64,000 nt of DNA from Candidatus Thorarchaeota archaeon (GTDB lineage: Archaea; Asgardarchaeota; Thorarchaeia; Thorarchaeales; Thorarchaeaceae): NCBI GenBank assembly GCA_046758445.1, contig JBHIAE010000012.1, forward strand, positions 1-64,000. Direction: 5' to 3'. The position numbers and the translations under genes were made by a program. Positions 22,493-53,334 of the stretch are shown in pieces. The notes beneath the pieces are model-generated. The model made no database searches, was not told the origin of the DNA, and saw only the letters and a program-made list of their open reading frames with translations. Positions within the stretch are counted from its first letter, which is position 1, and every line of letters begins with the position of its first letter.

Positions 22493-25400
22493 CTAGTCGG
22501 ATGCAGAGGGGTCCGAGCTTGCTTCGCTTTCTGCTCGAGCTCTGAGCTCCTCGATTCTCGTTGTCACTAGGTTCTCATTCTCGATAGCTTCCATTATGAT
22601 CTTGTAGACCCTTGCTTCTTCTAGTCCACAAGAGGTCATCTCGCTAGCCAGCTCTTCGAGCTCGAAACCGTCCGTCTTGTCAATCTTGATTATGCGCTCT
22701 TCTATGCACTTGGTCTTCCTCGGGAATCCCCTGAGCTCGGCCACCTTGTACTCCCTCAGAAGGCGACCATCCAAGATATCGTCGAAGAGTGTTTCGAATT
22801 GGATGATGGTCCAATCATCAAGGGTCCTGACTGGGGGTTCAGTGAACATGTTGTCAAACACAAATCCCACAGTTTCGGCGAACTCAACCATTCTCAATTC
22901 TTGACTCCTTGAGGGCGCCGACAATGAAATGAATGCGCAGATCAGGTTCTGAGTGGCCACTGTCCTGATGATGTCCGAAATCGGGGTCACAACCCAATCC
23001 TCTTGGTCGACGTCGAACTCAGACCGAAACGTGCTGATCGCACTGACGAATCCAGACACAAGACTCTCGTCCAGACCTCCCTTCACCATCTTCGAGAAAA
23101 CCGGAATTCCAGTGTGTTTGTGCAGTACAATGACCCCAAGAAGGCTCCTTACGTCATCAAAGCGTCTCTTGACAGTCATCGCTTCGAGGTTTCTTTCTCT
23201 CTGCCTTCTGATATACACCCTGCGTCCAGCAAAACCAACCACAGCCGCCACAGCCAGTGCCAAGAACGGGAATAAGCGTTGGAATGTTCTTGTCAACACT
23301 CCAAGCTCACTGACAATTGGAACGAAGGTTGCTTCGAAAACGCCTCCCTCAAGCTCATGATTCTCTCTTGTGACATAGACTCTCAATGATGAAGTACCCT
23401 CAGCACTTGGCATTGTGATGCTAGCAGTGTACACGCCTGGACTTGTTTCAACCATTTCTTCGAGGAGGCCAGGCCCTAGTTCTGTGACTATCTGAAACTC
23501 AACTGTGGCTCCAGACACGGCAGTCCCCGTGTCCGAATCAATTACCCTCAGGCTCAGCGTTGTTGGTAGGCCCTCAGTTGCCGTTAGTCCTTGAACGTCG
23601 ATTATCTGCATGGTGACATATTTGACAATAAGCGTGAAACCAACAGTCGAGTTCTGATAGTTCTCTAGATATGCCCTGAATGCAATCTGATAAGTGCCGG
23701 TATCAGGTGCTTCCACAGTGATATTGTAGAGGCCTCCTGTTAAATCGAGAAAGCTGTGAATGGAAAGACCCTCTGGTGGGCTCAACGCAAGTATCTGTGC
23801 GCCTGCCAGTCCATGGGACAGATCATCTTCAAGAGCGAACTGAATAGTATAATCTTGGTCTGCAGAGATGGTTGCCGTAGACGCATCCAAGACTAGGACT
23901 GTGGGTATCTCACTTACTGTGATTGTGAAGGTTGCGAAATGTGTTTCATGATTAGTTAGGTTAGCCTTCACAACCAACGTAAAGGTCCTCGCTGATGACA
24001 AATCCAAAAGAACTGAGTAGTAGCCATCAAGAACGTAGGTGGCATTGTCAAAGGTAAGTCCTGAAGTCGGAGTGACATCTACTACGCTTACGTCTGCTCC
24101 AGATAGTCCGTAACCGGTGCTATTCTCATACCTAACCACAAGCCGGTACGTGCTACCAAGGCGGGCAAAGTTTGAAGTCCCGTTTGTCATAGTGAGGTCG
24201 GTCCCTATCTCACCAACAATGAGCGTGAACGTGTCAGAACCATTGTAGTGATAGTTCTTTGAGGCCGTAAGTGTGACCGTATACGTTCCCGATTTCGTGC
24301 TGAACACTGTGACGAAGTAGTTTCCAGGGCTGCTGCTACTCTGATTAAGAAGACTCAATCCGCTTTCCGGCCCGGAGTAGTCCATGTGTATGGTAGCACC
24401 ATCGACTCCAGGCCCCCCTTCTAGCTCGAATCGCATATCCACAGTAGCGTTCTCATAGAGTCCGACTTCGACTGGCAATCCGCCGACTGAAGTGAGTTGA
24501 CATTCCGTTCGATATGTAGAAGTAATGACAAACTGGCATGACACGTTCTCAAAGTAGGGTCTTCAGGCATTGACGACTACGACGTATCGACCGGACCCAA
24601 CCATAGACGTATCAAAGTCTGCCTCCCACCAGTTCCTCACAAGATTGGGGGAGAAGCCAATAGTTGAGGTTGACCAATTGCCCTCTATGACAGCAGAACC
24701 ATCCATTAAGTAATCCCCATTGTCGTTGTCAACGTAATAGATCATGTTTGTAATCAGCTGACCAGTGTCTGCATTCACTTCTGATTGGTGAGGGGTGAGA
24801 GTTGCACTGTGATACATGTCAAATGAATAGTGTCCAAAAGCGATCTCAGTTCCGTTTGTCCACGCTACCTTGACTTGCCATTGCCCAGCTGTTGTATTGA
24901 TACCACCAAGTGTGAAGGATGAGCCATTCACAACTCCGTTGCTCATCGTGATTACTGAGTCCATAGCCCAGACGGTTCCGTTGGGCATAGCCCACGACAT
25001 GTTCACAGGTTCACCTTGGAGTGGAGTCGTGATGGGAGTACCTATCTCTACTTGGGTTCTAGTAACGTTGTCCACACCGAAGACCGTGCTCTCAATCCAT
25101 TGCCCTATGCCCACGTCCCAAATCTGTACCGGCGTGTCCTTTGCGTAATTGGGTGCCTGGAGCCTTATCTCCCACCATCCAACACGGTCCAGAAGGCTAG
25201 TCGGTACTTCAATCAGCCCCGCACTCACGTTACACTGACTAGTGATATCGTTTAGAAGCGGGTCTAATACCGTGGCATTTTTCCAGTCCCTAGGATATCG
25301 GATGTCCTGGGTTAGATTCTCATAGCTTCCCGAAGATCCAACATAGGTGAAGAAAGCCAGGTCTGCACTCTGGCCCAATGTCACGGAATACGTGACTCCG

Positions 25401-26589
25401 TGCTTTGATGGATCTGTAGTCCAAGAGGCGTTTACATAGCGCTGAGACAGTACAGTGATCTCGTAGTCAAAGGATACTGTGGTATTAGATGTGACCTCGA
25501 CCTGCAACGGGGTCTGTGTCCAGTGGCTCGGATTCGTGATCGATGCAGTCCCTTGCGAACCGAGGCCCGAAACTGCCCTCGACAAGGACTCCACATGAAA
25601 GACGAAGTCTACTTCTTCAAAACCGGGAGGAGTTGTGCTAGTAAACGAAATATCATCTAAGTCGAGTACTATTGATGCCGCGTTGGCTTCTCCATCAGGA
25701 AATCCATCGTCATCGTAGTCTCTGTCAGCATAGAGCACCAAATCATTGTATTCTATAAGCAGTCCTATCTCGAGCTGGAAGTTGGCCGGAGCTCCAGGAA
25801 GATTGACGTGAAGGTCACTTATTGTGTACCAAGTATTCCTAGAGTCAAGTGTGAGCAGACTCAGATAGTAGCCATCGGTGTGCACCCATATTATGAGTTC
25901 AGGATCACCATTCAGTGGGTCTAGATCGTCACCTTCAGGATCGATTGGGCCACTGTTCAGTCGAAAGTCTAAACTCAGATAGAAGTCCTCAGCATATGGA
26001 TTGTTGTTTATGGTCTGACTCCACAGAATCTCGGTATTTGCAAAATGCGTGTAACGTACTCCAAAGGACGGATGGTTATAGTACTCGCCCGTGTTATTCG
26101 TGGAAATACATCCTTCCACATCGTTGTGCTTTGTGCTTGTTTTCCTCCACTTGGATCGTATGTAGAACCAACCCAGGGCGAAGTACCATCCTCAAAGGTA
26201 CCATTAAGTGCATAGAGCCGCCTGAGGTTCTCCACCTCGACACCCGCTTGACTTGCGAACCAACCATTCCCCTCATCGATTCTGACATTGGTCTTGACAT
26301 TTGTCCCGGTGTCAGTTCTTGCACGCAGAGTATCGGACACGAGATACCCCGTTTCTTTCACCTCAACCGGGTCGAGAATACCGTCCTGAGTTTCCTGTGA
26401 AATCGTGAACGTCTTCTCACCCACTCTTTCAAGCTCTGGATTGATGTTTCGAACAGTCTGTTGGGGAGGTGAGTTAACTGATGACGCATCAGGGTCTAGG
26501 AAAGGCACTGCGTCCGGGTCCGTCGTCGCGAGAGATCCAAGGAGCAGGATGACAAGGAGTCCAATGACTGCATGCTTTCCTATTCTCAT
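22493..26589 (-). pseudogene. giant receptor-like surface protein (signal peptide, Ig-like ectodomain, TM, cytoplasmic longin-like domain), interrupted
   Basis: three ORFs join: frameshift near 26120-26130 and in-frame TGA at 24563-24565 (VNA*RPYFENVSCQF); cytoplasmic LLGVIVLHKHTGIPVFSK...LVSGFVSAISTF. Confidence 0.8.
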
Positions 26590-26687
26590 CACGTTAGCCT
26601 CGAGAGAGTGGTTGAGGACTGCCACCTTGACCATGACGGAGTCGTATGACGTTCCAAGACAAGGCAGCCGTCGGTGCGTAGGATGAT

Positions 26688-51540: not shown

Positions 51541-51732
51541 TGCAGAACCTCCAAACCGGAAGTGCTTCAGTGTAGCGAAGAGTCGGCTAAAACTGGTTCG
51601 GTATGGTCGGAAATCTCGACTTTGGAGGAACAAGGTCACGCCTAGGTGAGTTCTCTCATAACAGAGGCTCATCTCACCCGTCCTGAAGGCATCTTCATAC
51701 ATGAATATACGTGCCGAAACCAGCACGAAGGT

Positions 51733-53334
51733 CTACTTGCTCTCCCTAGTTCTCCTGAAGTTGAACAGGCTAATCACAATGGCAATTCCTGCAAGACTGA
51801 TGGGCGTCACAAGCCACACTGGCGACAACGCCTCAGCTTCCACACCCTCGATCATGACTGAGAAGCTGGCTACGACCTCATTTTGGTTGTTATCATAGGC
51901 TGTGACTGACAAGGCATATCTTCCCGGTTCTAGTGTCGTAACACTTCTAACGCCAGCGAAGCCGGCTTCACCATATGATGAGCTGGTAAGCGTGAAGTTT
52001 ACGTTGTCACTGAGTGTGAATCCGGCGATTCCTGAAAGGTCCCATGCGCCAATCCACATGTTGACTTGTGCGCCATAGAGGAAACTCTGATCTTCTGGAG
52101 TAATGATCCATTGTGGAGCAGCAGTGTCCTCGACAATCACACTAAGATGCCCGACAATTGAGTTGCCATAGAGGTCAGTCACATTGACCTCGAGATCGTA
52201 TCTCCCCACGTTCAGATTCCCTCTATCCGTCACCACTCCATCATGGTCAACTATGAAATGGAGAGTGTCATTGATGCGCCAAGTTTCAATGGGTGGTGAA
52301 GATATCACATCGAGCCCATACACAACCGTTTCGCCAAGTTCAACAGTCTGATCGATTGGCGTCTGTCCCTAGACTGGCGGCATCGGAATGTACACCAACG
52401 GATTGTAGTCGATGCTTCCAGCAGAGCCTGCAAGCAGGTATGGACGGTCATAAATGCCGTCATCCTGTTGATCGAAATCAGAGAACTCACTATAGTAATT
52501 GTATCCAAAGTGATTTCCATCAACTGAATGGTCAGTGACGCTTATCACATTCCAATGAAAGGTGTTCCAGAACACGAAGTTATCTCGTGAAGTTCCAGTG
52601 AAGAGCAAGGCGTCGAAATGATTCATGATGAAGAAGTTACTCCGGAACTCGTTGGCTGTGCATCCATCGCCAACGTGGACACCGACATCATTGTGCAAGA
52701 AGGTGTTATTGAGGAAGTCATTACCACCGCTACTCTGCAAGCCAATCCCGTAGGCCCAGTTCCAGCTAAAGGTATTGTTGTAGAACTGGTTCAATACTGA
52801 ATCGTACTCGAAAACAACTCCCCACGAGTTCATTGTGCAGTTGTTATTCCTCATTGTGTTGTGATGGGAGTTATAGAGATAGATTCCGTACATATTGTCG
52901 AATAAGGTGTTCTCGTCAAGAATACAGTTGGTTACATTCTCGAGATGTATTCCTGCCATAGAAGCGGCGGTAGCCCCCGTCAAGAGGCAATCCTTGACGA
53001 TTACGTGCAGACTTGTATTATAGATGGTTATGCAATTACCCGGGGCTCCTCCACGGTCTATGCTGTACCCCTCTATGACAAACGGGGTGTCCTCGCCACC
53101 ATCTCCCTGCCAAGATTCGAGCTGCGCTGTATCAGAGAGATTGCTATCTCCATCAATATAGATGGGAGCATGAATCTCATACGCAAGCCCCATCTCCAGT
53201 TCTCCTAGTTTGAGGTTTAGCTTATCTTCACTTCTCATTTCTCTAGTCGTATTCGTTTCCGGAGAATACGAGCTAACCGAGAACATGAGTATCAATGAGA
53301 TGGTGATACAGAGAGCTCTTCTCAAAGAGTGCAA
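51733..53334 (-). pseudogene. NosD-like beta-helix surface protein with Ig-like repeats and C-terminal TM, split by in-frame TAG
   Basis: signal peptide, HAPIYIDG..WQGDG, parallel beta-helix repeats; PPV*GQTPIDQ at 52369-52371 continues in frame into 51733..52323. Confidence 0.82.

Follow-up and report, generated by a model that had tools for sequence, protein, structure and literature searches.

The window analysed here, bases 1-64000 of contig C12 (64,000 nucleotides), belongs to a Candidatus Thorarchaeota archaeon known from a metagenome-assembled genome (MAG) of 3.25 Mb in 113 contigs, 92.7% complete. Within 28 kb of this window, four genes are each cut by one in-frame TAG or TGA: a large cell-surface protein gene, a gene for an AlkZ/YcaQ-like DNA glycosylase, a nitroreductase-family gene and a gene for a NosD-like surface protein. 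A first reading of the sequence, called below the original prediction, proposed that a single mechanism, either A-to-I/G correction of UAG and UGA to UGG or Trp suppression, would repair all of them, and mentioned G-to-A nonsense mutation and a consensus artefact as alternatives. From the assembled DNA, we consider it highly probable that the four stops are ordinary recent nonsense mutations, found in one near-clonal Thorarchaeota population.

All four stops that had been announced are present, and the same frame is open on both sides of the stop in each gene (Table 1). In the AlkZ-like protein, Pfam domain PF06224 covers residues 52-374 and the stop, at 236, lies inside it; in the nitroreductase, PF00881 covers residues 9-172, with the stop at 161, so that in both cases the domain runs across the interruption. 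The NosD-like protein is made of an N-terminal half of NosD/beta-helix type, followed by two immunoglobulin (Ig)-like repeats and a transmembrane (TM) anchor. The large surface protein (more than 1,200 residues here, ~1,400 codons in relatives) contains Invasin_D3-like repeats and is anchored by a TM segment at its C-terminus. All four genes are uninterrupted in the orthologs of the same genus.

Table 1. Interrupted genes of the window and their lesions (an asterisk marks the stop).
Feature	Position	Strand	Remarks
Large cell-surface protein gene, now a pseudogene with two lesions	22493..26691	-	ortholog comparison
In-frame TGA in the large surface-protein gene	24563-24565	-	VNA*RPYF; ancestral TCA (Ser), C-to-G transversion
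Frameshift in the large surface-protein gene	26125..26143	-	ortholog tblastn alignments switch frame between ~26143 and ~26125
AlkZ/YcaQ-like DNA glycosylase gene, now giving two products of 206 aa and 171 aa	26688..27827	-	Pfam PF06224, E 6.8e-41
In-frame TAG in the AlkZ gene	27207-27209	-	DDVA*WLP; replaces the first Trp of the conserved (A/S)WW motif
Nitroreductase-family gene, 256 codons if read through	49793..50563	+	Pfam PF00881, E 2.7e-20
In-frame TGA in the nitroreductase gene	50273-50275	+	LPK*VFPIALLCFGYP; replaces a conserved Trp (TGG)
NosD/beta-helix surface protein gene, 501 aa when intact	51733..53238	-	Pfam PF05048, PF13229
In-frame TAG in the NosD-like surface-protein gene	52369-52371	-	PPV*GQTPIDQ; replaces a conserved Trp; polymorphic

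Residues replaced by the stops and age of the lesions

To read the ancestral codon at each site, 20-30 related genomes were searched with the read-through protein, written with an X at the stop, and the codon aligned with the X was recorded; the assignments rest on 8-10 same-genus orthologs per gene. At all four sites the orthologs carry a sense codon one substitution away from the stop. For the AlkZ gene this codon is TGG in 9/9 same-genus orthologs (61-86% identity), and the site is the AWW motif of AlkZ/YcaQ-like proteins, as had been recognised from the sequence. The aromatic residue expected in the nitroreductase is a Trp, encoded by TGG in 8/8 orthologs (55-91% identity), with a Tyr in a more distant paralog. 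The stop in the NosD-like gene falls, as proposed, on the Trp position of a surface-protein repeat: the codon is TGG in the 82%-identical ortholog and in most paralogs, within a PPxW motif.

The residue lost at 24563 had been left as either W or S, and only the second option holds. The orthologs have a Ser there, encoded by TCA in six close ones and by TCC in another, in the context V-N-A-S-R-P-Y-F, where it belongs to an N-X-S sequon. With TCA as the ancestral codon, this stop is a TCA-to-TGA transversion, and a Trp inserted there would not bring back the original Ser.

Three of the stops would thus be coding-strand G-to-A transitions that changed a conserved TGG (Trp) into TAG or TGA, and the fourth a C-to-G transversion that changed a conserved TCA (Ser) into TGA, in a gene that would also have suffered a one-base frameshift. 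Plain G-to-A nonsense mutation, one of the two alternatives of the original prediction, is the reading favoured by the evidence, with the exception of 24563, where the change is C-to-G. The remark that each stop is one base from TGG is literally correct, but this is true of any TAG or TGA and is uninformative; as a statement about origin it stands for the three sites where TGG is ancestral, and fails at 24563. None of the four stops was found in any relative among the 10-15 same-genus genomes searched, meaning that, in the comparison with sister genomes that had been advised, the stops are private to this strain. Internal stops were also flagged in three of the AlkZ matches, and were rejected since their positions are upstream of the start.

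The large surface-protein gene carries a second lesion, the frameshift noticed earlier near 26125, which is real: ortholog alignments change frame in this interval (Table 1). The most economical reading is the loss of one A from the A4 run at 26140-26143, which would account for the frame. A perfect 7-nt tandem duplication (AAGCACA x2, 26131-26144, minus strand) adjoins the frameshift site. It was considered as a cause and rejected, as removing one copy does not restore the frame.

Selection on the parts located downstream of the stops was estimated on the branch of this genome with a three-taxon Nei-Gojobori method, using the two closest species, G007 and G010. The dN/dS ratios were 0.20 for AlkZ, 0.04 for the nitroreductase, and 0.10 for both the NosD-like and the large surface protein, equal to the ratios found upstream of the stops and on the sister branch. 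The parts that follow the stops (0.04-0.20) thus show no sign of relaxed selection, for which a dN/dS near 1 would be expected. Such low ratios indicate purifying selection during nearly the whole branch, and hence that the stops are probably very young, in agreement with the polymorphism at 52370 reported below.

Variation between sequencing runs

Exact-protein look-ups led to independent Logan assemblies of other sequencing runs that contain the locus. The Logan contig of run SRR29324603 is identical to the window over every stretch compared (more than 20 kb at a time), except at base 61400. That of run SRR29324601 differs from the window at 3 of 21,506 bases (52370, 61400 and 62897). At 52370 the plus strand has a T in the window and in SRR29324603, and a C in SRR29324601, which turns the TAG of the NosD-like gene back into TGG; in the SRR29324601 contig, this gene is called as one intact protein of 501 aa. 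On the Logan contigs the site reads TAG twice and TGG once. We conclude that the stop at 52369 is a single nucleotide polymorphism (SNP) segregating in a near-clonal population. The genes are cut at the DNA level, and the lesion at 52370 is not yet fixed. The two remaining differences are transitions that leave the gene calls unaffected (61400, T in the MAG and C in both Logan contigs; 62897, G in the MAG and A in SRR29324601).

The other stops were found again in these assemblies. The stop-cut nitroreductase product of 160 aa is present on 4 Logan contigs, the 206-aa N-terminal fragment of AlkZ on 3/3, and both fragments of the large surface protein (518 aa and 647 aa) on all Logan contigs on record. 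In two runs a single residue of the surface-protein fragments is changed: SRR29324601 has P9L, and a fourth run has A377V. P9L (CCT to CTT) is derived, the closest ortholog having a Pro. An intact allele of the surface-protein gene was once suspected on a third contig, each fragment being matched exactly on 2/3 contigs, and was rejected: the contigs carry the same fragments with P9L or A377V, and TGA is present in all. When the intact alleles were looked up exactly, none was on record for AlkZ with TAG as W, for the nitroreductase with TGA as W or for the surface protein with TGA as S, and neither allele of the AlkZ site was matched in a scan of JGI metagenomes. In all, five differences between runs were observed, every one of them a C/T or G/A transition.

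These data bear on the possibility that the organism really has TGG or TCA at these sites and that the stops are errors of the MAG. The genome is indeed a 113-contig MAG, and at base 61400 it differs from two other assemblies. However, the same stops are found in independent assemblies of 2-4 runs, as judged from the stop-cut products of the nitroreductase (4 contigs), AlkZ (3/3) and the large surface protein (all contigs). Moreover, the NosD-like TAG is seen on 2 contigs next to one TGG, and a consensus substitution error is not expected to recur across runs. An assembly or consensus artefact, the second alternative of the original prediction, is thus very hard to believe. The locus offers a small snapshot of a natural, near-clonal Thorarchaeota population (3 differences over 21.5 kb between runs), in which G:C-to-A:T transitions accumulate and in some cases disrupt accessory and surface-protein genes.

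Internal stops and decoding across the genome

The whole genome was compared with that of a same-genus relative, G004 (2.58 Mb in a single contig, mean amino-acid identity ~74%), by tblastn in both directions, keeping only the best non-overlapping frames. An internal stop was retained if at least 40 residues were aligned, with a flank identity of at least 40% on each side of the stop. Unfiltered tblastn tallies were ~100-fold too high, due to antisense or off-frame open reading frames (ORFs) and to alignments running on upstream of true starts, and only filtered tallies are used here. This alignment filter left 13 internal stops in 583,272 aligned residues, compared to 37 in G004 with the same filter, meaning that the genome under study is not unusually rich in stops. 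Many of the G004 stops are TAA, or stand at Lys, Glu or Tyr codons (transversion types), in a genome that contains 39,900 N; they may be assembly consensus errors or real decay.

A filter on dicodon coding potential and evidence from paralogs were then added. Among the stops thus supported outside the window, Trp is replaced at C41:2329, C17:46009, C113:1095, C6:764 and C50:4923, Arg (CGA or CGG) at C93:3497 and C15:41668, Gln at C26:20812 and Ser (TCA) at C59:403, the last two being now TAA; several further stops stand at Lys, Glu and Tyr positions. The tabulation that the original prediction had suggested thus returns a mix of Trp, Arg, Gln, Ser, Lys, Glu and Tyr. As read from the alignments, this is the Trp/Arg/Gln mix plus transversions that mutation predicts, and there is no Trp-only rule. 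Among internal stops, coding-strand G-to-A changes seem to be more frequent than C-to-T changes.

The use of stop codons at true gene ends was also examined. In most pairs of ORFs in the same frame, the stop between them is also found in G004 and marks a real boundary between genes. At ortholog-defined gene ends we counted 479 TAG, 449 TGA and 118 TAA. TAG is the commonest terminator, and TAG and TGA together end 89% of the genes, in line with the earlier remark that both are normal stops elsewhere in the window.

Machinery for recoding was then looked for, as had been proposed. In the 92.7%-complete genome, the pyrrolysine (Pyl) genes PylS and PylD, the selenocysteine (Sec) genes SepSecS and SelD, and tRNA-Sec (RF01852) all remained below the curated cut-offs. 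Introns are present in many of the tRNAs. In a tRNA set that is incomplete, no CUA or UCA anticodon was found among the ARAGORN tRNAs, or among the Rfam matches with a readable anticodon (33 tRNAs found by the Rfam model). One intron-containing candidate reported by ARAGORN as tRNA-Stop (tta), at C40:12865-12972, was rejected: on the Rfam alignment it is a tRNA-Asp (GUC), with CUGUCAC as anticodon loop and an odd D-arm region. Lowering the ARAGORN threshold produced 3,543 matches, essentially all false, which were discarded. At the RNA level, no significant local hairpin was detected at any of the four stops (z scores of -0.65, -1.04, -0.41 and +0.33).

With these results the proposed rescue can be weighed. 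It supposes that a full-length protein is still made because UAG and UGA yield Trp: the codons could be edited (A-to-I) to UGG, a Trp suppressor tRNA could decode them, or UGA could undergo leaky near-cognate decoding. Three of the four stops do stand on invariant Trp codons, the downstream parts are intact with a low dN/dS, and Trp-derived stops form the largest single class genome-wide. Against this, the stop at 24563 comes from a conserved Ser in an N-X-S sequon, which a Trp would not restore. The stops occur in none of 10-15 same-genus genomes, and one of them is a segregating SNP. Other internal stops of the genome replace Arg, Gln or Ser, and some are TAA. TAG and TGA terminate 89% of the genes, no suppressor tRNA is found among the (incomplete) tRNAs recovered, and the four sites lack a local hairpin (z from -1.0 to +0.3). 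Finally, fungal editing favours a U at position -1 of the edited A, according to PMC11156358, and this U is absent in UGA. We conclude that rescue at the RNA or translational level is most improbable, and that one mechanism repairing all four stops, be it A-to-I/G correction or Trp suppression, is not supported, in view of the Ser-derived stop, of stops that are strain-private and in one case polymorphic, of the mixed residues found genome-wide, of the normal use of TAG and TGA as terminators, and of the Pyl/Sec machinery and suppressor tRNA that were searched for and not found. Taken by themselves, the three Trp-derived stops (27207, 50273 and 52369) have only a very slim chance of being decoded as Trp at a useful level, with functional genes as a result; were it so, restorative editing or Trp suppression would be seen for the first time in an archaeon.

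The system that inspires the comparison is the restorative A-to-I editing of premature stop codons in mRNAs of filamentous ascomycetes (PMC10776026, PMC11156358). It shares with the present locus a UAG or UGA that is one A-to-G change from UGG, in otherwise intact genes. According to PMC11156358, fungal editing favours hairpin loops together with the U at -1, hence UAG and UAA; here there is no local hairpin, and two of the stops are UGA, with an A that follows a G. The stops described here are moreover absent from related genomes, one is polymorphic and one derives from Ser.

A second comparison is with Asgard archaea in which stop codons are recoded as Pyl and Sec (PMC9723677), and with an archaeal code where all TAG are Pyl (bioRxiv 10.1101/2024.09.30.615893). 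In-frame TAG or TGA in genes of an Asgard archaeon are the common point. The differences are that PylS, PylD, SepSecS, SelD and tRNA-Sec do not reach the cut-offs here, that TAG is the commonest terminator, and that the sites were ancestrally Trp or Ser and not Pyl or Cys/Sec. The main value of the analysis is a negative result, as it removes a tempting lead on recoding or editing in an Asgard archaeon. It also provides a route to settle such cases without sequencing reads, which combines ancestral codons from sister species, a genome-wide table of replaced residues, counts of the stop codons that end real genes, and the comparison of separate assemblies from sister runs.

Clustering of the lesions and mutational context

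Some observations do not fit easily with ordinary nonsense mutation. Three Trp-derived stops among four exceed what a plain mutation model predicts from the codon usage of the genome: the probability of at least 3 of 4 is 0.001 without transition bias, and 0.06 with a kappa of 8 and a twofold GC-to-AT bias. In the wider tally ~8 stops are Trp-derived versus ~1 Gln-derived, when similar numbers are expected, the counts being small and the comparison post hoc. A low dN/dS downstream of the stops is equally expected from recoding, and the 33 tRNA matches obtained from this intron-rich archaeal MAG (92.7% complete) are not a full set. Lastly, four stops and a frameshift in 28 kb are a real local excess, which we explain by inference only. 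All of these weigh against our conclusion. The excess of Trp over Gln could come from strand asymmetry, from a milder selection against leaky UGA, or from chance.

As to the cluster, the window holds 4 of the 11 stops that pass the coding-potential filter and lie in the G004 alignment span, within 28 kb of a 3.25 Mb genome. A rough scan-statistic estimate gives p ~1e-3, a post hoc figure since the cluster is the reason why the window was flagged. One may ask whether these mutations, though real, were selected: losing the two anchored surface proteins, and possibly the two other genes as well, would for instance allow escape from viruses that use them as receptors. This would account for the closeness of the lesions and for the fact that so many of the changes break genes. 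Anchored surface proteins are encoded by two of the four genes, which carry three of the five lesions, and a nonsense change is among the only 3 SNPs that separate two runs over 21.5 kb. On the other hand, large surface-protein genes are large and often dispensable targets, for which neutral decay gives the same pattern, and the numbers are tiny. Selection for loss is therefore unlikely, while deserving more credit than either rescue or artefact. Under ordinary nonsense mutation, the two anchored surface proteins, the AlkZ glycosylase and the nitroreductase would be dispensable accessory genes, and the lesions would persist and cluster because the affected genes are dispensable and neighbouring.

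The mutations would stem from cytosine deamination, with its usual bias toward G:C-to-A:T changes, and at least one of them would have arisen at the inner C of CCWGG. The AlkZ change, at 27208, reads CCAGG to CTAGG on the plus strand, and the P9L SNP (codon 9 of the 647-aa fragment, ~24410-24412, minus strand) reads CCTGG to CTTGG on the coding strand; both hit the inner C of CCWGG. The remaining stops are outside CCWGG, one in CCAGA and the rest in unrelated contexts. In the whole genome CCWGG is under-represented (observed/expected ratio, O/E, of 0.78) and the products of its deamination are in slight excess (1.07-1.10). Two genes for C5 DNA methyltransferases (PF00145) are present, at C28:2695-3711 and C20:36465-37418. 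These features suggest that the CCWGG changes occurred at hot spots for deamination of 5-methylcytosine, produced by a putative Dcm-like methylation.

In lacI of E. coli, Coulondre et al. are said to have traced amber hot spots, in 1978, to 5-methylcytosine deamination at CCWGG. The likeness with our case lies in the AlkZ stop and the P9L SNP at the inner C, the deficit in CCWGG and the two C5 methyltransferase genes. It differs in that the other stops fall outside CCWGG, and in that CCWGG methylation is here only putative.

Two other causes were considered and rejected. An APOBEC-like GG-to-AG signature is uninformative here, as the GG context is automatic when TGG becomes TAG. A broken O6-methylguanine methyltransferase (MGMT) is not a candidate either: the neighbouring MGMT-like gene (50694-51050) keeps the PCHR active site.

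The closest parallel to these lesions is found in the ordinary nonsense pseudogenes and split genes of prokaryotes. As in these, a conserved sense codon has been altered at one base in each gene, the stops are restricted to one lineage and in one case still polymorphic, a frameshift is found alongside, and nonsense changes of other types exist elsewhere in the genome. Nothing essential distinguishes the two situations, the only oddities here being that 4 stops and 1 frameshift are clustered within 28 kb and that so many of the stops derive from Trp. For annotation, the four genes are to be marked as pseudogenes or split genes, and no alternative code is to be used in translation.

A few other features of the sequence are reported. 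The MGMT-like gene mentioned above is a short one (118 aa, O6-alkylguanine-DNA alkyltransferase-like, PF01035, minus strand), and it lies between two of the broken genes. GATC is strongly under-represented in the genome (O/E 0.60, maximal-order Markov estimate), a deficit that hints at a GATC-specific restriction or methylation system. The window also contains, at ~58065-59216 on the minus strand, a gene for a small GTPase of the Arf/Ras/Roc family (384 aa), a typical eukaryotic-signature protein of Asgard archaea, which is intact both in the window and in the contigs of the sister runs.

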